Assembly: GCF_011745625.1 (NCBI RefSeq)
Contig: NW_027191452.1
Location: 1,054,001 to 1,118,000, forward strand
DNA: 64,000 nt
Source of the DNA: Cladosporium halotolerans
Taxonomy: Eukaryota
Direction of reading: 5' to 3'
The translations under genes were made by a program, and so were the position numbers. The notes beneath the pieces were generated by a model. That model had not been told where the DNA came from, made no database searches, and saw only the letters and a program-made list of their open reading frames with translations. Of this stretch, positions 1-26,218 are shown in pieces (the first letter of the stretch is position 1; the number at the start of each line of letters is the position of its first letter).

Positions 1-2230
1 CCGCATGTCAGACGCCTTCATGATCGCCGTGTGTGGAGGTCAGAGCTGCATTGACAAGGCTCAAACCGCATACCTCAAGAAGCAGTCCAAAGGCCCGAAC
101 TACCTTCGTCTTCTGGCCAGCATTGTTGGCAAGAATCTGTGGGACGTTGTGCACAACGCAGATCTCAAGGACTGGAAGGATGTGATGGCGACGCTATGTA
201 CATACGCCGACAACTCTGAGTTCTCAGACCTTTGCGAAGCCCTTGGTGATCGCCTCGAGGAGGCCTACCAGCGTGATGACAGCGTCAAGGCCTTCCGCCG
301 CGACGCTTCGTTCTGTTACCTGGCTGGCTCTAAGCTCGAGAAGGTTGTCATCAACTGGGTGCAAGAATTGCAGGAGCATGAGAAGTCTGCGCTTGAGGCT
401 TCTGAGAGCGAGAATGACTTTGCTGTTCACGCAAAGGCCCTCCAGGAGTTCGTCGAGAAGGTGTCTGTCTTCAGACAGGTCACCAACTTCGAGGACGCAG
501 ACAAGTCAGCCACTGCCGACTGGAAGCTTGCACCCTTGTACAGGCTGTATGTCGAGTATGCTGATATCCTTGCCGCTCATGGGCAACTGGTCAGTGCAGA
601 GCGTTACATCAGCCTCCTTCCCGCACAATTCGAGGGCGCTGAGAGCGCGCAGACTCGTCTGAAGCAAGCAACACGCAAGGCGACCGCCAATGCAAGGCAG
701 CCTGCGGCGACAACTCAGCGCGCAGGCGCACGTCCGGTGTCTGTCGCGCCTCAGTTCCAAGCTGCTGCTCCTCTCATCAACCAGGCCACCAATGCCACTC
801 CCCTGGGAACAGCATCCCCTTACGCACCTGTAGGTGTCACTCCCGCGGCTCCGGCAGCTCCTGCAGCGCCTGCTCAACGTGGTCCCTATGCACCGGCTGC
901 AAACAGCTACACTCCCTCAGGCTATCAGCCCCCCAACGCGGCGCCCGGCCCATATGCGCCTTATGGGGGTGGCTATCAGGCTCCCCAACAGCAAGCTCCT
1001 TTGCCGCCGCCACCTCGCGCAGGGACAACCTCGCCATCCGGACCTCCACCATCTGCTGCGAAAAGCATGACCAACTGGAATGACATGCCCGACAACTTCA
1101 TTAAACCCCGTGACCCTACACCTCGCCGTGGTACACCTGCCCAGCAACCCATCGCCTCACCGTTCCCCAATGCTGCGCAGTCAATGATGTCCCCTCCGCC
1201 CCCTGGAGGCCCGCATTTCAACAAGCCCACGCCGCCTCTTCCTCCACCCCCTAAGGCAGGAGAGATGCCGCCCAGGGTGTTGTCTCCACCCGTCCAGCCC
1301 CCCATTCAAAGGCCGACATCTGCTGCAGCGAATGCTTACGCGCCTCCGCCACCTGCAGCGAACTCCACCTTGCCTACACCCACCGGTCCACCTGTCCAGC
1401 GCGGTGCCTCGCCGTTCCAGCCACCGCCTGCCGTGTCTTCCGCTGCGCCTTCAAACCGTTATGCCCCGGCACCAGGCTCTGCACCCTCTCCGGCCCCTAA
1501 CATGCAAGCTCCTCGCCAGGTTGCACCTAACCCATATGCAGCCCAGGGAGGTCCCAGCCCTTACGCGCCGCAAGGCCAGCCCCAGGCTCCATACGGTCAA
1601 CCGCCCGCTGTTGCGGCACCACCTCCAACCGGTCCGCCTCCGCAGAGGACAGGCCCGCCGCCCCAGGGTCCACCTAGAGCTGCCCAGACGCCGGTTGGGC
1701 CTCCTCCTCAAGGTCCTCCCAGAGGCGGTCCTCCACCCATGGCGCAGGCGCCGCCCCCAGTCCAGCCCACTCCTCCACCTCAGATGGAGCGCGCGACCAC
1801 GCCGGCAGCTAAGACGAAATACCCTCGTGGCGACCGATCTCACATCCCTGCCAACGCTCAGCCTATCGTTGACCTGCTCTCGCCTGAAGTCGCCCGCATC
1901 AAATCCGTGGCCCCGCAGGCGTTCAAGCCCCAAGTCGACGACATGGACAAGCGCATCAACATCTTGTTCGACCACCTCAACAATGAGGAGCTTCTCAAGC
2001 CCGACACTGTCCAGCAAATGGTCGAGATCAGCCAAGCTGTTGCGGGCAAGGAGTGGGATCGTGCGCAGGCACTGTTCACCGAGATGCAGAGCGCCAAGCT
2101 GGATACGGAGGGCACACTTTGGATGGTAAGTTGAATTCATCACTGCGACATATCACAGCACTTTGCTAACAACAAATGACAGGTCGGTGTCAAGCGCTTG
2201 ATCGCTATCGGCAGAGCAACCAAGGCTTAA
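1..2230 (+). CDS. SEC31: COPII coat protein Sec31, 5'-truncated by the window edge
   Basis: Alpha-solenoid region, long Pro-rich linker with WND motif, C-terminal domain (GDRSHIP...RINILFDHLNN). Intron 2126-2182 (GTAAGT..GCTAAC..CAG) gives the terminal exon VGVKRLIAIGRATKA*. Confidence 0.93.
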
Positions 2231-16861: not shown

Positions 16862-17746
16862 TCACTTGCCGTTGTACTCCCTCTCCCACCTCTCCTCGGA
16901 CATGTTAGCGACTCTGCCACCCTCATTCGCCTTCCACTTCCTTGCGTCGTTCTCCTTGTGGTACTGAAGATACGCCGACAGCTTGCCCACCGGCGAGCCC
17001 TCGCTAGCGAAGATTTCCGGGCGGTCAGCCATGAAAGCACTTAGCTCCTCAGACATCTTCGCACCAGCCACCTCGCGGTCGACCCTGTGCTTGGCGATCA
17101 ACCCAGCGCTGTCAATAGCACCGCCCTCCGCTCCCAGCTCAGTCGTCACAACCGCCTCAAGCTCCAGCTCCCCAACCCGATGGAAGAAATACACCGGCCT
17201 CTCGCCATCCCTCCCCTCCAACGCAGTCGTGATCGTATCTAACACCAGCGTCATCTCCCCTCCCTCCTCCCGCTCGACCCCCCAGCTCGCCCGCTCCGCC
17301 ACAAACCCCATCTGGAACTTGAGGTCGAACACCGACTCGCCCACGCCCGCCTCGCTCAGCACGCTCTCCACCGCTTCCCGGCCCTGTACCTCGACGGACT
17401 GCGAGGCGACATAGTCGCCGCTCTGCTTGATCTTGGCTTCCCAGACGCCTTGGGATTGTGAGGCGCTGCTGTTGTCGTCCGCGGGCTCAGTCTTGCGCCA
17501 GCGGACCCAGATGCCGCGGCGCTGGAGCTGGGAGGCGCGGTCGAAGTACTTGTCCGTGATGAGCTTGCGCGGTTGGCGGGTTAGGGTGGTGCGTGGGAGG
17601 GTGATGGCTTGCGCGGGGGAGTTCGATTTGGATTTGGGGCTGGAGGAGGAGGATGAGATGTATTGCTGCAGGAGGGCGGTGGGGAGGAATTTGCGCTCGA
17701 CTTCGAGGGTGGATTTTAGGGGTTTGATGAAGGAGAGGGGCTGCAT
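16862..17746 (-). CDS. CYTH/TTM-fold triphosphatase (thiamine triphosphatase-like)
   Basis: ExExK signature EVERKF, DKYFD, IWVRWR, WEAK, VGELELE, GKLSAY. TATATAAA lies about 120 nt upstream of the ATG at 17746. Confidence 0.75.
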   Translation of the reverse strand: MQPLSFIKPLKSTLEVERKFLPTALLQQYISSSSSSPKSKSNSPAQAITLPRTTLTRQPRKLITDKYFDRASQLQRRGIWVRWRKTEPADDNSSASQSQGVWEAKIKQSGDYVASQSVEVQGREAVESVLSEAGVGESVFDLKFQMGFVAERASWGVEREEGGEMTLVLDTITTALEGRDGERPVYFFHRVGELELEAVVTTELGAEGGAIDSAGLIAKHRVDREVAGAKMSEELSAFMADRPEIFASEGSPVGKLSAYLQYHKENDARKWKANEGGRVANMSEERWEREYNGK

Positions 17747-18096
17747 TTTGGTGGTGGGGGTTCTTTGTTGTTGTTTGTGTGGTTGGTTTGGTGGGTGAGG
17801 AGATCGGATCGGCGAAGGTCGTGTTTGTGGTGTCGTGGTTGTTGTTCGCCGTTGTTGCGGGGAGTGTTTATATAGTGCGGTGTTGGACAGTGAAAGTGTT
17901 GTACAGTGAAATGGATCAGGCAATGGCATATCGAGCTACGTTGTTGATCGTTATAGAATCAGTGAAGCAGGTAGGTGGACTACACGAAATGGCACGCGCC
18001 AAGATTCACTTTCACCGCATACATGCAGATAGTACCGGTCAATTGCATCATCAAAGAAGTATGTGATTGTCCAAAACAGTAGTCATCAGATTTCCG

Positions 18097-19650
18097 TCAC
18101 TGACCTCCTCCACCGGACAGACTATCTAAAGCCGTCCCAATGCCGGAGAGAACCGCCGTCGGATTCAAGGTCAGCAGACCAATACCCGAAGTGGCCACAC
18201 CGGCAAACAGGCTGATCAGCGGCATCAACGATGACTCCTTTTTGCCCGGTGGGGTCTGATGTAACTGCATCATCTGAGCCTGGATGGCCTGTGCGTGCTG
18301 CTGCTGTTGCTGTCTCTCGAAAGCAAACCGCTCCTCCATCTGTTGTTGCATCCTGTCCAACTTTTCTTTATCCTGTTTAGCGCGTTCAGCTTCCGTCGTC
18401 TTTTGTTCCTTCAAGAACTCTTGCATGCGCTCTTCAGCCTCTTGTCCTTGGCGCTTGAACATCTCTCGCTCCTTTTGAAGTTGCTCTTCGAGCTGTTGTT
18501 CCTTTTTCTCTTGCTCTTCTTGTTGACGGTTCAACTCGACCTGTCGGGCAAGGTGCTCGGCCATTCTCTGACGATCCCCCTCCTCCAGCGCCTGCACCAT
18601 CTTTGCGTACTCGGCAGTCTTCTCTTCGCAGAGCTTCTCGAAAGTGATCTTGAGGTTCTCTTGTGCCTCGCCAGCTCTCTGCAGCTTTTTCTCAAGGTCG
18701 TCGCGTTGCTGTTGCAAGACCTCGGCGAGTTGCAAGTCCCGTTCCTTCAAAGCCTCGTCGTACGACGATTGCAAATCGGAGATCTGCTCCTCGAACTTCT
18801 TCTTGGCGAGCGAGAGTTCCTTCTCGACTTCCTGACCGGCCGCAGTGTCTTCGAGAGATTTCTTATCGTCGATCATTTCCTTCTGGATGTCGAGGGTGAC
18901 AGGGCCCTCTTGAGCCCGACGCTCGATGAGACGCTCGACGATGGCCAGAGCGCACTCTTTGGTCCCGTCGTGACGCACGACGGTGCTTCCTCGCTCCTGC
19001 ATGAGGCCCCACCAGTCCCTGCGCGTCGTCAACTCTGTCTCCCTTGCCACGCCGGTGTCGTAGGTCAGAGTGGGCGTGTTAAGGTTGGACCAGAAGTTCG
19101 TGACGAGCGAGACATGTTTCATGGCATCTTCGCCGCAGAGCTTTTTGAACATCATCAAGTTCCTGAGGCTCGAGCCGCTCATGCGGTCATCGGTAATGCG
19201 ATGAAGGTAGATGATTCCGCTGAGCTGGACGGTAGTCTTGTAGGCCTCGCCCAACCAGAAAGCAAGCTGTTTGAGGACATCGGTATCTGAGATTGTAAGC
19301 AAGACTCGTCTGAAATGTGCTGGCAACTTTCATACCTGTTCTGTGGGTGTCATCGAAGCCAGGGGTATCGATCAAATATACTCGTCGAGTGTTCTTGTAG
19401 ATGAAAGAATGGACCTCAACATCGGCAGTGCCTGAAATTGTTCAGTATGCGAGTCCACGGAGATGATAGTAACAAACCTACACGAGCTCAGTTCGTGACC
19501 AATTTGGACGAAATCCTCGGACAAAAGCGAGATAAAAGTGCTTTTGCCAGAACCGGTGATTCCCATAAGTGCAATGAGAACATCATTTTTGCTAAACTGA
19601 CTCAACTTCTTCACCCCGCCGTCGACCCTTTTCTCCTCTTCGACTGCCAT
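18097..19650 (-). CDS. AIG1/GIMAP-like P-loop GTPase A with long coiled coil and hydrophobic C-terminus
   Basis: G1 GITGSGKS, G3 DTPGFDD, GIIYLHRITDDRM, VTNFW. Introns 19432-19481 and 19287-19335 join three ORF-track pieces in frame. Confidence 0.85.
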
Positions 19651-20740
19651 GATGAGATTAGGCGGTAGTATCCAAACTATGAATATGGCGTTGGAGTTGC
19701 TGGTTGATGGTTCGGCAAGAGGTATCAGTCGTAGGTAACTCTAAGGTATACTCACTAAGACTATCTGTGGCCACCATCAGTCGCCGGATGGTCGCATGAT
19801 ACCAGCAACTCAGCCTCGCTTCAGCCCCAACGCCATGATTGGCCCCATGTCGCACAACAGGCGTAGGATGGAGGCACAGGAGGAGATGTCTCCGCCCGGG
19901 GTCACCGGATTGAGCCATTTCACAGGCGTTTATCGCCGTGTGATGCCGCCATCGGCGTCTGGCTATCGAAATTATGCAGGCCCGTCAGGGGGCACTCCGC
20001 CATGCATGCCGCCGTGTAAGAGAGGCTGCGTGCCTCAGGTCGAGACCGGCAACTTCCTTGACTTTGCTCTCATGACACTTATCGTGCTTGCAGATTCCGC
20101 ACCCTCAGATGATATCTGACGCCGATGTTTGTTCAGCTCGATTGCCGATCGAGTGGGACAGTTCGTAAGCTGCGTGGATTGAAGGGCGTCGGAGGATGTT
20201 GTGAAGCGCCGTGCTCGGCAACCAACTCCAAAAAGGGCCGGGTGGCGCACGCTGACCTCTCCCTTTGGGGCATCGCTTCGAACAAGCGACAGCGCATCAC
20301 CAACGGTCATCGAGTTGTGTTTCGACGACGAGCTGTGCGAAAACACAGGCCATGAATATGTCATTCAGCTGCGCCCGGAACGACACCGATAGTGGCGCCA
20401 GAGACAGTGGCTCCATGGCGTGAGGCAAGTTATAGCATCTGCATTATGGGCCCAAAACAGACGCCTGTCGGAATCGCCGGCGACCCTATGGCGCCCTCAT
20501 GCAGGCAGAGAGAGTGGCTTGGGGCCATGTGCCTGAAGCGTTCGGGAATATGCAGGCCGGCATAGTGCTCTCAGGTAAGGCGAAAACCAACACCGGCTGC
20601 ATCCCCGATATGTACAAAGAAGCTCTAAATCGTGGCTCAATCCTCTCAAGACTGCTGTGCGCACGCGAGACCTCTTCAATAACGCTATGGTGCGATACGG
20701 CTTTACACGCTTGAAAGATCGTTTGGTTGACAGCGACACG

Positions 20741-23056
20741 ATGAGTAACGGTGCCATGGAGCCAGTTGCGCAAACTACCGGTGGTTCAGAAAAGACACAG
20801 GAGCCAAAGCAGCAAGTGGATCAACGCGCATTCAGAGATGGTTACGAGCCAGCAGAAGGCGACGTGTTTATCGCCGTTCTTGGAGTAACTGGAGCCGGCA
20901 AAAGTACCTTCATCTCGAAATGCACGGAGAAAGAAGTGAGCATAGGGCACAACCTACAAGCGTGTACGCAAGAGGTCGGAGTTTTTCTCTGCAAATCTCG
21001 AGACTTCAACATTTACCTTGTCGATACGCCTGGCTTTGACGACACTGATCGATCGGACACGGAGGTAAGGTGGTAGCGATTTCTTCAACATGGATGTATC
21101 GTCAAACACGATTCGCTTTCCTCGTGTGGAATTTGTCGGGAGTGTTTGAGTCAGCCCATCGCTGACCTGTTCATGTCTTTAAGGTTCTCAAGGAGATCGC
21201 ATCCTGGCTTACTGCATCCTACTCAAACTCCATCAAACTCCATGGCATTATCTATCTTCACCGGATCACAGATCCCCGCATGCAAGGCTCCGGCATGCGT
21301 AATTTGCACATGTTCAAACGCCTTTGTGGTGACCAGAATCTGGCAAACGTCGTGATGGCGACCTGCCAATGGGAACGAGTCCTGGAAGCAGATGGCGTCG
21401 AACGCGAAAGACAGCTCAAGGAAACGCACAACTTCTGGGGCTATATGGTTGAACGTGGCAGTAAGATCCATCGTCATTACAACAATCGCGAATCCGCCCT
21501 TCGATTGATCGACAGCTTGGTCAGTGGCAACACCGCCAGACCAAAGATTGTTCTCGATATCCAGGCGCAGATGGTAGATGAGGGCAAAGATCTCGCCGAC
21601 ACAGCAGCTGGTCAAGCAGTTGACGATGCGATCGCCAAAGAGCGGCAGCGTTTCGCCAAACAAATTGCTGAATCGCAAGCTGATCTGAGGGAGGCTCTCG
21701 CTTCTCGGGACCGCGAGACTGCCGATATCCTAAGGCAGCACCAAGATGAAATGAATGAACGCGTCCGTAAGCTCGACAAAGAACACTCGGCTTTGCAAGT
21801 CAGTCTGGAACGATTGCAAGAAGAGCGCTTTGCGAAAATGAAGAAAGCCTTGGAAGATGCTGAGAAGGTCAGCGCCGAGGCCAGGCAGATGATGGAAATG
21901 GCGAAAAAAGAGCAGGCACAAAACAAGAAAGCCTTGTTGGACCAGATCAGGGCCAAGGACGCTGCAGAGGCAAAGCACAAGAAGGAAATGGCCGAGCTGC
22001 AGGCCAAAGTTGAGGCGCTGCAAACCCCGAGTGCGAAACCGGCAGAGAAGCCGAAGGAATATGCGATAGCCCTTTTCGATTTCTCAGGCGAGACACTAGG
22101 CGACCTTGCCTTCAAGAAAGGCGACCGCATTCGCATCATCACAAAAAGTGAGAACGTGAATGAATGGTGGACTGGCGAATTACATGGAAAGATCGGACTT
22201 TTCCCTGCAAACTACACAACAATCGACACAGATGAACCGCCGCCGACCCCGACGAAAGCTGGCTCCGTGTCTTCACAAAAGTCACGAGTGAGGTCACCTC
22301 CGGGCATCAACAGCCTCATACTCTGGCCGTGCAGTCTCAGCCTATGGGCGGAGAAGTTCTTCTTCGTTGCCTACACTTCAGACCTGTATGGGAACTTACC
22401 AAAAGACTTCCCCATTGATCGCAAAGCCGATAACAACGGCAACCGTTGCATTATCTTCGGGGAAGGCGATTCATACTACATACACTACCATGACGCTCTC
22501 ATGCAGTGCTGGACGCAGCGGAGCGACGACTTCCTCAAACACTACCCGGAAGCTGAGAAGTACCTTACAGCGTATGAGCAGTTTGGCTGTCCACAATGCG
22601 TGTCTCTCGGTAGCAACTCCCAGTACTTCATCAGGACGGCGTGGGGCGCTTCATACAACATTCCCAAAGACGCTGAGACTTATCTCGGCAACATGGCGCT
22701 GGTAGAGAACTTCTGGTTCGGCAAGAATGGTGCTTGGGTGGCGACGAAGTATGACGGTAGTAGGTGCTGGGATCTCAAGGGACAGTATCCTGGACTCATT
22801 GAAAGGATCAGGACTGGCATAAATGGGGAGACAAGGATCTCGGTGAGTATTTATCGAACGAAGATGTCGACAGGCCAAGCTGACAACTAACTTCATCAAG
22901 ACACTCGCGATGAATCCCAAAGACGATACTCAATGGGTTCTGCTTTGGAAGAACGGACTGGCCGCATACAACATCGGCACACAATACCCTATCGATTCTT
23001 TCGAGATCGAAGAATTTTTCACCAAGAATTTTGGTTGCACGTGGGCTAATAAGTGA
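20741..23056 (+). CDS. AIG1/GIMAP-like P-loop GTPase B fused to coiled coil, SH3 and a C-terminal repeat domain
   Basis: G1 GVTGAGKS, G3 DTPGFDD, GIIYLHRITDPRM; SH3 ALFDF..LAFKKGD..WW.G..GLFPANY. Introns 21065-21183 and 22843-22900; last exon ends ...GCTWANK*. Confidence 0.85.
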
Positions 23057-23599
23057 GTGACTGAAGGGTGCTATTGTTCGCCGGGCTGATGCTGTCGACC
23101 TCGGAGGGATTTGTAGTTGCTTTGAAACGCTTCTGAATGACTATCGGATAACGAAAAACGTGTATGTCACAAATGACCTTTCTGCTGCCCTGCTGAGCAT
23201 GATGGTGTGGACCAACGTCCTGATGATGCGTGAAGGATCGATGAGAATTTTCCGGTAATTTTCGAATGCATTGTGACAAATAACGGGTCATCATCGTATT
23301 GTTGCACTGTCGAGTCGGAAATCTTGAGAGTTTGAATTGAGGCATCTTTTGGCCGCTTCTAGCCTGTAGACTATAAGCGGATTAGCGCGACGGTGCATCC
23401 CGCGGATGCCCACGGATAGATCCTACCTCACAAATATGTCCTTCGTGCCCACAAACTTCACGAGTGATAACCTCGGCTTTCAATCGAACATTGGTAAGAG
23501 TCTGCGTCTTTGAGCGCGTTCATCTTAGGGCTGTTCTACACATCAGTATAAACAAGTTGCCATCAGAAGTACAAGAACAGCTCCAAGAGGATCTTAAAA

Positions 23600-23833
23600 A
23601 TGTGCATGAAACAGATCTGCCCCACTTGCTGTAGGCTCTCACCCATCCATCATGGTCCAGCACCCCTAAAAGAAACCCGCTAACGCGTCACAGCCAAGCA
23701 ATCCTGGTTCGGATGCGGTGCCCATATCCCTAGGGTTATGGACTCTATCCCGCAGGGAGAGTGGTGCCAGTGTGCACCCAAAGTCACCGTTGATGGAAAG
23801 GAATACCCGCCTAAAGCTGGAACTGCAAGCTAG
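23600..23833 (+). CDS. 56-aa Cys/His-rich microprotein (spliced, absent from the ORF track)
   Basis: Exons 23600-23630 and 23694-23833, with intron GTAGGC..GCTAAC..CAG. Product MCMKQICPTCSKQSWFGCGAHIPRVMDSIPQGEWCQCAPKVTVDGKEYPPKAGTAS; ATG in AAAAATG context. Confidence 0.8.
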
Positions 23834-24000: not shown

Positions 24001-25023
24001 TCACCACTGAAGCTCTTTCGACTGCGTAGACCCGCAGCCTCCCTCCTGAGCTTCTTTGCTCCAGTCATACAGTCCACCCCTCTTGACAAAAGCGTCCTGA
24101 TCCCACTTCACCTCATCAAGCGCTTTGGCTACACCAACGTCAAGAATAGAGCTCGACTGCTTCTCTTTCCCCTTTCCCTTGTCCAAAAAGCACATGTATT
24201 CATCCAAGATAAGATAGCTGGAGGCCATGATCTCGTTTGGCTCCGGAATTAAAGAAGGCAAGTGTCTGTGCTTCGCACAGAAAGCCTCGTACTCTTCGTC
24301 ACTAATCAGAAGGCCTTTGGCGTCTCGCTTGCGCTTGTCATTCTCGGTGTCGGCGGTATTGGCGTCGTTCTCGTCTTCTACGAACAAAACTTGAAAACAT
24401 TTCCAGCGCTGAGGATCAAGCTCCTCGACGATCGCCGCCATGTCTTCCTGCCAGTTGTACTTGCAGACGACAGTGTTGAGCTTGAACTTGATCCCGAGCT
24501 TGCGGCACCAGTCACGGATGCGGAAAAGCTGCTCGACGTTTTTGCCAGTGCCACGACCAATGGCTATGTTGGTCTCCTCGTTGAAGCTGTCACAAGACAC
24601 GCCCATCACATCGACAAACTCGCCATACTTGTCAAGCCAGCGCTCAGTCAGCTTTGTGCCGTTCGTGATGATAGAGACGCTCTCCAGTCCCAGGCCCTGC
24701 TTGCAGAACTGGCACAGCCAACCGAGCTTCTCGGGATATAGGAAAGGCTCGCCGCCGGCGAAGTTGATCTTGCGCATTCCGGCCTTCTTGAGGAGCGTGA
24801 GGCCGCGCATCATTTCTTTTTTGGTGGCAACATGCGAGGTTTTCTCGGTGTGGAAGCAGAACTTGCAGGTCTTGTTGCATTTGCGGGTGAAGTGGTAATT
24901 GACTGAGACGGGTTTGGTGGTAAGCTTTCTGACATAAAAGATGTAGGCACTAATAGCGAGCAGGACCAGACAGATGATGGCCTGGCCCATGGTGGAAGTT
25001 TTCAATAATTGTGTAAGAGCCAT
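24001..25023 (-). CDS. RSAD2: Viperin (radical SAM ddhNTP synthase), intronless
   Basis: SVNYHFTRKCNKTCKFCFHT, KINFAGGEPF, VSCDSF..TN..IGRG, FKLNTVV, RWKCFQ, SYLILDEYM, SILDVG, F.KRGG.Y.WSK, terminal Trp; hydrophobic N-terminal segment. Confidence 0.96.
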   Translation of the reverse strand: MALTQLLKTSTMGQAIICLVLLAISAYIFYVRKLTTKPVSVNYHFTRKCNKTCKFCFHTEKTSHVATKKEMMRGLTLLKKAGMRKINFAGGEPFLYPEKLGWLCQFCKQGLGLESVSIITNGTKLTERWLDKYGEFVDVMGVSCDSFNEETNIAIGRGTGKNVEQLFRIRDWCRKLGIKFKLNTVVCKYNWQEDMAAIVEELDPQRWKCFQVLFVEDENDANTADTENDKRKRDAKGLLISDEEYEAFCAKHRHLPSLIPEPNEIMASSYLILDEYMCFLDKGKGKEKQSSSILDVGVAKALDEVKWDQDAFVKRGGLYDWSKEAQEGGCGSTQSKELQW

Positions 25024-25528
25024 CTTGATTGTAGCGTGACGGGGTCGTTGGTTGTATCAGGATCAAGAGTGTGCGACCAGCTTATATGGATCGTCTTCGT
25101 ACTAGTTTGCTAAGCCTTGTGTGCCTAAGACATTGTTGCTTTATTGTCTGCGGCAATCAATCAGTCCAACAGACAAGAAGCAGGTTTCACAAACGTTTGG
25201 CCACTTTCAGTAGCCTGCTACGAGCGAAATGATCAATTATTGGCTTCAAAAGATGCTTTTCCTCATTCACTTGCAGATTATGTCTCAACGACATCGACTC
25301 TGCTGCACAATTCTATGGATCACAACTCGAAGGCCACAACCCGCCACGCCTCGTCAGTCGTCCGACTTCACTTGCTTAAAGAAGTGATTCACTTTCTTTT
25401 CTCAACACACTGGTGAAGAGTCTCACAAGGATACGTGCAATGTTTCAACACCTTGACAACTTGCGCCTATATCAAGGCTGTCTACGGCCAAACAGTAAAA
25501 GATTTCCACGACAACAGAATACACAACA
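25024..25528. promoter_or_regulatory. Probable bidirectional promoter shared by viperin and the NMP kinase
   Basis: 505-bp spacer between divergent ATGs, with TATA-like elements about 60 nt upstream of each start (CATATAAG on - near 25085; TATATC on + near 25468). Confidence 0.5.
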
Positions 25529-26218
25529 ATGTCTACAGCTACAAACTCGCCACCTGGCGCCTCCACAACCAAACAGCCATCCATAATCTACATCCTCGGC
25601 GCGCCAGGCGCAGGTAAAGGCACCCTGTGCTCCTACCTCACGCAACACTACGCCAACGTCTACCACCTCTCGATCGGCGACCACCTCCGTAGCCTCCTCG
25701 CTCTCCAAACAGCAGAAGCATCCCAACAGCTCCTCGGCGGCTTGTCGCAACAGGACTTCGCAGCCCGCATGCAGCGCCGCGAGCTCCTCCCCGCCTCGAC
25801 CATCGTCGCAATCACCCGCGCCGCGATCGACTCCATCGTCCCCCAAGCCTCCGCTGCCGGGCATCAAGACTCCATCATCCTGCTCGACGGCTTCCCGCGC
25901 TCGATAGAGAGCGCCCGGCTCGCGGACGCTGTGTTCGGGCTGCCGAGCTGGGTGTTCCTGTTCGACTGTCCGCGGGAGCTTGCGGCGGACCGCTTTCTTA
26001 GGCGCAGGCGCTCGACGGACGACGATATTGGGGTGTTTGGGAAGCGGTTCGAGGAGTTTGAGAGAGTGAACGGGGAGATTTTGGGGCTTTATCGTGATAG
26101 AGTTGTGGTTTTTGACACGACCATGGCGTTTGAGAAGACGTGGGAGGAGATGGAGACCTTCGATGGGTACTTGACGCAGCTGGGTGCGGTGGAAGTGGAG
26201 AATGGGATCGATGGGTAG
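25529..26218 (+). CDS. Adenylate/UMP-CMP kinase-family nucleoside monophosphate kinase (short LID), intronless
   Basis: ILGAPGAGKGT P-loop, HLSIGDHLR, LLDGFPRS, RFLRRRRSTDD. Confidence 0.9.
   Translation: MSTATNSPPGASTTKQPSIIYILGAPGAGKGTLCSYLTQHYANVYHLSIGDHLRSLLALQTAEASQQLLGGLSQQDFAARMQRRELLPASTIVAITRAAIDSIVPQASAAGHQDSIILLDGFPRSIESARLADAVFGLPSWVFLFDCPRELAADRFLRRRRSTDDDIGVFGKRFEEFERVNGEILGLYRDRVVVFDTTMAFEKTWEEMETFDGYLTQLGAVEVENGIDG

Follow-up and report, generated by a model that had tools for sequence, protein, structure and literature searches.

GTPases of the GIMAP/AIG1 family have a patchy distribution and are lacking in model yeast (PMC7053062). GIMAPs are described as regulated through homo- and hetero-oligomerisation; GIMAP1, GIMAP2 and GIMAP5 carry C-terminal anchors, the anchored GIMAP2 is activated by the cytosolic GIMAP7, and GIMAP6 inhibits GIMAP7 via the G-interface (PMC9111091). 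Arginine fingers are common to GIMAPs, Toc34/159 and ancestral septins (PMC10996617). In bacteria, the DO-GTPase/GAP1 systems comprise two co-encoded paralogous TRAFAC GTPases, proposed to form dimers near membranes and equipped with variable accessory parts (PMC7159879). Here, we describe a pair of paralogous GTPase genes, A and B, located in a 64,000-nucleotide stretch of the Cladosporium halotolerans genome (contig NW_027191452.1, positions 1,054,001 to 1,118,000; hereafter the window). The pair is an intact, transcribed, divergently arranged two-gene module kept in other fungi, and its products would probably, by analogy with the above families, operate through a heteromeric GTPase mechanism.

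18097..19650, minus strand: gene A, 484 aa, exons 19650-19482, 19431-19336 and 19286-18097; GIMAP/Toc-like GTPase with a long helical region and a C-terminus ending in a hydrophobic tail
20687..23056, plus strand: gene B, 730 (or 712) aa, exons 20687 (or 20741)-21064, 21184-22842 and 22901-23056; GIMAP/Toc-like GTPase with a helical region, an SH3 and a C-terminal domain of five repeats

After GT-AG splicing, both reading frames are open through to the stop codon, and the translations equal database proteins P0225 (A) and P0001 (B), corresponding to C. halotolerans WHR41_00394 and WHR41_00395, a record which possibly stems from the same genome as the window and adds no independent support. The starts lie 1,091 bp apart when the second ATG of B is used, in agreement with the 1.09 kb given by a sequence-only reading of this DNA, and 1,037 bp apart from the upstream ATG, which is kept in the relative locus L001; an RNA contig extends to 20667. 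Across the GTPase and stalk, 147 of 378 aligned residues are identical between A and B (~40%, E 5e-84), while a single DNA stretch of 180 bp can be aligned (67%), and no third family copy is present within the 64-kb window. The intron following the G3 motif is located after nt 265 in A and after codon 108 in B (712-aa model), and A carries an additional intron (19481-19432). The sequence-only reading had taken the clear divergence and the 8-nt offset of the post-G3 introns as signs of an old duplication. Both observations hold, and an old duplication is supported by the tree and the distribution of the family, but the offset does not date it.

Transcripts cover parts of both genes in all three RNA runs compared, out of five on record as RNA; these are metatranscriptomes holding related strains, ~96-99% alike, and their contigs indicate the presence of a transcript, neither its level nor its strand. 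All four introns, two in each gene, are seen as joints in contigs of run X16, and runs X17 and X18 confirm one intron each. Of note, both introns of B (ends 21183 and 22900) use AAG, a rarer acceptor, yet are spliced in RNA. Because one DNA contig, from a strain ~1% different, spans 17751-23600, the head-to-head arrangement is not an assembly artefact.

With regard to the GTPase domain, the P-loops and a conserved arginine are found at the following positions.

19540..19563, minus strand: G1/P-loop of A, residues 30-37
20882..20905, plus strand: G1/P-loop of B, residues 66-73
19183..19185, minus strand: Arg123 of A, candidate arginine finger, unchanged in all 51 rows of alignment A6
21277..21279, plus strand: Arg158 of B, equivalent of A Arg123, unchanged in all 21 rows of alignment A2

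The G1 (GxxxxGKS), G2 (Thr) and G3 (DxPG) motifs are canonical in A and B, all the other shared motifs listed earlier are present too, and G3 reads DTPG in 48 of the 50 paired genes. A R123 and B R158 follow the hydrophobic strand after G3, at a place assigned by eye to the arginine of the GIMAP conserved box, which lies between G3 and G4 and ends R-F/Y-T-x-E (PMC7053062); the rest of the box consensus is not retained in the A/B family. In P0226, an allele of A, the predicted protein of one strain has His in place of Arg123, which represents either a natural null or a sequence error. At the position resembling G4, for which the types TxGD, NKxD and TxCD are described in GIMAPs (PMC7053062), the family shows T-T-M-W followed by Asp, Glu or a small residue, and A and B deviate further; the register relative to GIMAPs is tentative there, the alignments ending at G3. 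The G5/IAN motif RxxxFNN is absent from both proteins, B having YNN without Arg four places upstream and A having HDG. In Pfam, A and B are above cut-off for MMR_HSR1 and under cut-off for AIG1 (PF04548), which is not listed at E 0.001 and whose cut-off is reached by 3 of 13 relatives (P0051, P0054 and P0198). Septin (PF00735) appears below cut-off for exon 1 of B only (E 0.058) and is absent from the full proteins, and the only relative passing GBP, marginally, is P0144.

The AlphaFold models of A and B (mean predicted local distance difference test score 82) consist of a G-domain and a long helical stalk, with helices at 237-427 in A and 267-403 in B, which agrees with the coiled coil proposed earlier. 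Foldseek ranks GIMAP7 first for both models, with GIMAP2 and Toc33/34 next; sequence identity in these matches is 13-19%. In an exhaustive structure comparison, 9edr_G scores Z 16.3 (root-mean-square deviation 3.0, 169 aligned), Toc33 Z 16.2 (3.4, 188 aligned), GIMAP7 Z 15.6 (3.8, 193 aligned), and Era and EngB Z 15.0-15.3. The GIMAP/Toc clade is therefore called on a small margin, because Toc33 and GIMAP7 tie with 9edr_G, Era and EngB. Judged from the predicted folds, A and B are a fungal branch of GIMAP/Toc-like (paraseptin clade) GTPases which lacks two marks of AIG1 membership; the AIG1/GIMAP-like label given earlier stands for the fold and G1-G3, but not for the Pfam AIG1 profile or the IAN motif.

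Vertebrate GIMAP/IAN proteins, which provide the best structural match of both models (3zjc), share with A and B the G1-G3 motifs, helices in the C-terminal part, the existence of anchored and soluble paralogues, the clustering of genes and, as placed by eye, an arginine following the post-G3 strand. In contrast, identity to A and B is 15-19%, the IAN motif and the conserved box apart from its arginine depart from the GIMAP consensus, as G4 appears to do, and the A/B family has a much longer stalk, strict head-to-head pairs and CaaX, SH3 or five-repeat tails. The Toc33/Toc34-Toc159 proteins, the tied top fold match, are paralogous, membrane-bound and dimerise via an arginine finger, whereas A and B are fungal, have no translocon context, and display a long coiled stalk, variable tails and physically paired genes. 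Guanylate-binding proteins of the GBP1 type combine a GTPase, a helical stalk and, as in many A/B relatives, a CaaX end; GBP1 and GBP5 are among the fold matches, but rank below GIMAP/Toc, and A and B themselves have no CaaX. Like the bacterial DO-GTPase/GAP1 systems, A and B are two paralogous TRAFAC GTPases encoded together, but the bacterial proteins have a Walker B glutamate, with GAP1 and effector genes in operons, where G3 of A and B is DTPG. The genes seen beside A and B (viperin, a kinase and one unmatched gene) include no GAP1 or effector gene, although no GAP1-profile search was made.

The pairing itself recurs in other fungi. Consecutive locus tags of A-type and B-type genes, a record of adjacency and not of orientation, occur in four further Dothideomycete taxa, Cryoendolithus antarcticus (one pair), Rachicladosporium CCFEE 5018 (two pairs), Oleoguttula sp. 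CCFEE 5521 (two pairs) and Bathelium mastoideum (two assemblies), the last of which is a distant member of the class; Cryoendolithus antarcticus also has a second A copy without a partner among the matches. Members of another pair lineage carry consecutive tags in Chaetomium globosum, Chaetomium fimeti, Chaetomium tenue and Chaetomidium leptoderma. A metagenome scan covered 70 loci, from the best 80 of 267 confirmed stretches, with 113 family genes and a few near-duplicates (e.g., L005/L015). A head-to-head pair is present in 19 of the 34 loci in which a plus-strand gene has 2.5 kb or more of sequence upstream, and 47 of 69 genes with an upstream flank of at least 2.5 kb belong to such pairs. 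Adjacent family genes are arranged head-to-head in 26 cases, in tandem in 13 and tail-to-tail in four, and all four tail-to-tail cases sit between two pairs within four-gene arrays. Loci L003, L004, L010 and L016 are four-gene arrays in which two different pair lineages lie tail to tail, with 1.46-1.61 kb between cores. The distance between P-loops ranges from 690 to 2,284 bp in the pairs and is 1,296 bp in the window, and tandem arrays are mostly found in an intron-pattern group clustering with Gymnopilus and Pleurotus proteins. Two of the outcomes that the sequence-only reading had named as counting against it, a pair neither conserved nor co-expressed, are not what is observed.

Partner relationships were analysed in 25 pairs, namely the 26 locus pairs minus four incomplete ones (L002, L041, L055 and L069) plus three named pairs. 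Only five of these 50 genes have their own partner as closest relative. In a test made on 23 pairs after dropping L060 and L061, matched-partner distances correlate (r 0.56, against -0.09 +/- 0.11 in 2000 random re-pairings, none of which reached r), a correlation to which host kinship contributes. In the two-pair loci L003, L004, L010 and L016, partners of the CaaX or Y-type clade recur without swapping, and since these arrays keep the partner lineages, co-divergence exceeds what host kinship alone would give. In the maximum-likelihood topology, the approximate likelihood ratio test (SH-aLRT) gives 99 for the A clade and 83 for the B-type group.

The C-terminal regions distinguish the partners, and in the window comprise three features.

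18118..18231, minus strand: hydrophobic glycine-rich C-terminal segment of A (about residues 441-478), a candidate membrane anchor that includes a T-x-N-P turn
22066..22209, plus strand: SH3 of B, residues 421-468 (PF00018, E 1.5e-13)
22321..23035, plus strand: C-terminal domain of B (about residues 506-724), built of five units, each with three strands and a helix

The hydrophobic Gly-rich tail noted earlier in A is real, with a 19-residue hydropathy reaching 1.86; its model confidence is low, and its G...T-x-N-P pattern is repeated among A-type relatives, those of Fusarium included. In the metagenome pairs, exactly one partner has a CaaX end, an established prenylation signal (PMC10282164), in 15 of 20 cases, both partners in none and neither in five. 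The hydrophobic tail of A may take in the window pair the anchor role that CaaX would play in other pairs. As a side observation, in L005 and L015, among the five pairs without CaaX, the tail of the minus-strand partner consists of Pro/Gln/Tyr repeats ending in a cysteine run; the run lies on the usually anchorless lineage and the usual CaaX partner has no CaaX, so that an anchor swap is possible. Taken as observed across these loci, the pairs have an old origin and are passed on as units, and in most of them the two C-termini differ in kind.

The SH3 and repeats attributed earlier to B are likewise found, although the repeats are degenerate. SH3 passes the cut-off in P0001, but not in P0030 or P0035, and is absent from the Cryoendolithus and Bathelium orthologues, a sequence distribution indicating a lineage-restricted insertion. 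The C-terminal domain has no Pfam match and is confidently modelled by AlphaFold. Its units 2, 3 and 4 match one another at 86-96% HHalign probability, against 0.4-37% for the other seven of ten unit pairs and at most 1.9% in 20 control comparisons. Near-complete five-repeat domains occur in 85 of the proteins compared, of which 74 carry a GTPase, two are stalk-bearing fragments and nine are free (200-245 aa). At L041, a separate five-repeat gene (1189-1635, minus strand) lies between two head-to-head GTPases, as in a split three-gene form of the module. The N-domain of the polyglycine hydrolase Fvan-cmp (PDB 7TPU) is described as five units of ~44 residues, with 15 strands and five helices (PMC9912923), a layout shared by the B model; this is a lead by description only, and no sequence match with the B domain was found. 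A free five-repeat homologue model matches a beta-lactamase-fused actinobacterial domain in the Atlas (TM 0.68), while PDB structure searches with B returned matches occupied by the GTPase part. Three candidates for the domain were rejected: a WD40 fold, whose matches are sums of weak local alignments, a tectonin likeness in the Atlas (0.77-0.79, within chance), and a methionine aminopeptidase match due to a local CPxC coincidence. Across the family, the tails carry SH3, ankyrin, ubiquitin-like or five-repeat domains, and in B-type relatives these accessory parts diverge faster than the GTPase (55-70% against 86-91%). Cysteine-rich tails were also noticed in L003 (6927, minus strand), L004 (7081, minus), L010 (7140, minus), L016 (7235, minus) and L037 (6723, minus); by eye, they presumably resemble the start of a ZZ-like zinc finger.

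Between the two genes lie the following features.

19651..20686, no strand: spacer upstream of both genes, 1,036 bp, candidate bidirectional promoter
20469..20505, no strand: 37-bp non-coding element, 30 of 37 positions conserved upstream of a B-like gene in locus L001

No contig of the three RNA runs covers 19744-20559, an interval covered in the DNA run. The 37-bp element has a score of 39, matched by none of 1000 shuffles and none of 59 other window blocks, and is known from one relative only; repeat matches within the spacer were short and at chance level. The shared spacer may co-regulate A and B. It is also conceivable that linkage serves promoter sharing only, A and B each forming homo-oligomers without mutual binding, as the conserved spacer element, the existence of unpaired and tandem members, and the retention in both proteins of all catalytic motifs and the arginine, enabling each to work alone, would allow. 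We consider this unlikely, as co-divergence, lineage-faithful two-pair arrays and one anchor per pair suggest a division of labour, and GIMAP, Toc and septin paralogues heterodimerise.

A heteromer of A and B remains the favoured arrangement, and it would form as a GTP-dependent dimer through the arginine, as GIMAPs, Toc34/159 and algal septins do. Beyond co-transcription, the steps that we infer are as follows. GTP-bound A and B would dimerise via the G-domain interface, the arginine of each (A R123, B R158) entering the active site of the other; A would tether the complex to a membrane by its hydrophobic tail, and B would recruit ligands or cargo through SH3 and the five-repeat domain. GTP hydrolysis would then release the assembly, whose role may be to mark or remodel a damaged or invaded compartment. 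We tentatively propose that A and B form such an anchored-plus-adaptor heteromer, similar to GIMAP2/GIMAP7 and acting as a GTP-gated membrane scaffold in cell-autonomous defence or stress surveillance.

Several points weigh against this proposal. Binding between A and B, and their activity, are argued by analogy. Fifteen of the 34 metagenome loci have no head-to-head partner, in Thelonectria olida and Fusarium vanettenii the A-type protein and the B-type protein are encoded apart from each other, and in the group clustering with Gymnopilus and Pleurotus only five of 15 genes are paired, tandem arrays being dominant. The CaaX test, at a nominal p of 0.013, treats related pairs as independent, and its counts come from open-frame ends without intron modelling. 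A single ancestral pair with two deep clades was dropped, the backbone of the tree being without support, and so was, as evidence, an asymmetry of acidic versus small residues at the G4-like position (17 of 25 pairs, p 0.089). The genes around pair loci are for the most part housekeeping genes or lack annotation. Finally, MGG_02992, a B-type protein of Magnaporthe with the same C-terminal domain, is reported in conidia, and an insertion mutant is said, second-hand, to affect conidiation and conidial morphology (PMC2989938).

This last point speaks for the same anchored-plus-adaptor heteromer serving instead, as a septin-style scaffold, in development (conidiation, septation) or in membrane housekeeping such as lipid droplets and autophagy. 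SH3 domains commonly bind cytoskeletal and endocytic partners, A and B are transcribed in environmental RNA without known challenge, allelic variation is low, and neighbours at other pair loci are mostly ordinary. We hold such a role to be a close but less likely rival: the mutant evidence comes from a single insertion line known by citation, and core machinery would not usually be a multi-copy family of patchy occurrence whose tails are swapped and whose pairs form arrays. Given a heteromer, we place defence or stress surveillance slightly ahead, in view of the exchangeable tails, the faster divergence of B accessory domains than of the GTPase, the part that the closest families play in immunity, the likeness to the double-GTPase conflict systems of bacteria, the HET genes beside 2 of 16 pair loci scanned, and the presence nearby of viperin, which also argues against the developmental role.

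24001-25056, minus strand, and 25499-26218, plus strand: head-to-head viperin (passing NCBIfam NF038283) and diverged nucleoside monophosphate kinase
16862-17746, minus strand: next gene downstream of A, without a match in Pfam or NCBIfam

The distance from the end of gene B to viperin, on its downstream side, is 945 bp. The HET genes belong to L022 (13108-15330, minus strand) and L032 (3821-6307, plus strand), in a scan of 82 of 134 listed open reading frames, 63 from the 16 pair loci and 19 from unpaired loci; two HET genes among 63 frames, without a control set, were not counted as defence-island enrichment.

The sequence-only reading had likened the pair to allorecognition genes or head-to-head plant NLRs, with sensor and executor partners. 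In such a system, a non-cognate allele or ligand would free the A tail to permeabilise a membrane. Linked head-to-head paralogues do recall NLR pairs and doc-1/doc-2 of Neurospora and Sordaria, the glycine-rich hydrophobic tail could form a pore hairpin, and X16 RNA differs from the window by ~4% in A and ~2% in B. This explanation is nonetheless highly improbable. Ten of ten same-cluster alleles are 98-100% identical, in clusters defined at 90% from which divergent alleles would escape, whereas doc haplotypes are described as ~35% identical (PMC4831770), and the claim of a polymorphic locus is not sustained. The death-pair claim fares no better, as no NLR, HET, HeLo or gasdermin domain was matched in the Pfam scan, and the replacement of the tail by a four-residue CaaX in most pairs fits anchoring, the simpler role, and not pore formation. 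The fold of A and B is that of a TRAFAC GTPase, with no STAND family above cut-off. Although doc-1/doc-2 are likewise linked, diverged paralogues in filamentous fungi, DOC proteins measure 828-920 aa, are restricted to Sordariales, are highly polymorphic and belong to a different family; identity with A and B was rejected, the DOC papers containing no GTPase or P-loop term. In a Podospora non-self transcriptome paper, the sole mention of MMR_HSR1 concerns down-regulated ribosome biogenesis genes.

A broader form of the defence proposal would be a widespread fungal immune system, in which a receptor GTPase with an exchangeable ligand-binding tail, here SH3 and the five-repeat domain of B, the latter possibly binding glycans or peptides, activates a membrane-anchored partner, and this partner in turn coats, remodels or ruptures a compartment. 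We regard it as unlikely; if true, it would represent a fungal counterpart of animal GIMAP/GBP immunity, here beside viperin. A search of open-access full text, with subscription papers and supplements lying outside it, found no account of such paired GIMAP-like GTPases in fungi. A 2025 survey of Sordariales immune receptors excluded a large orthogroup, OG0000027, with MMR_HSR1/AIG1/Septin matches (PMC12258605), which is probably the A/B family; the same survey found head-to-head NLR pairs to be rare (13 of 225 two-gene clusters). A common, ancient head-to-head pair of anchored and adaptor GTPases would, if confirmed, add a new module to the cell biology of fungi, and possibly to their immunity, and would offer a simple, genetically tractable two-gene model for GIMAP heteromers, which are poorly understood in animals.

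In other respects, the matches listed give no indication of a prokaryotic origin, at least 57 bacterial loci aligning over G1-G3 only (E 5e-6 or weaker), nor of a viral one, none of 25 viral stretches being confirmed; in a viral fold search, AIG1-family giant-virus proteins come first, with nothing for the B C-terminal domain. Finally, chains with two GTPases are present in databases (P0054, P0274-P0278, P0279, P0283, P0286 and others), representing either real fusions or merged gene calls.

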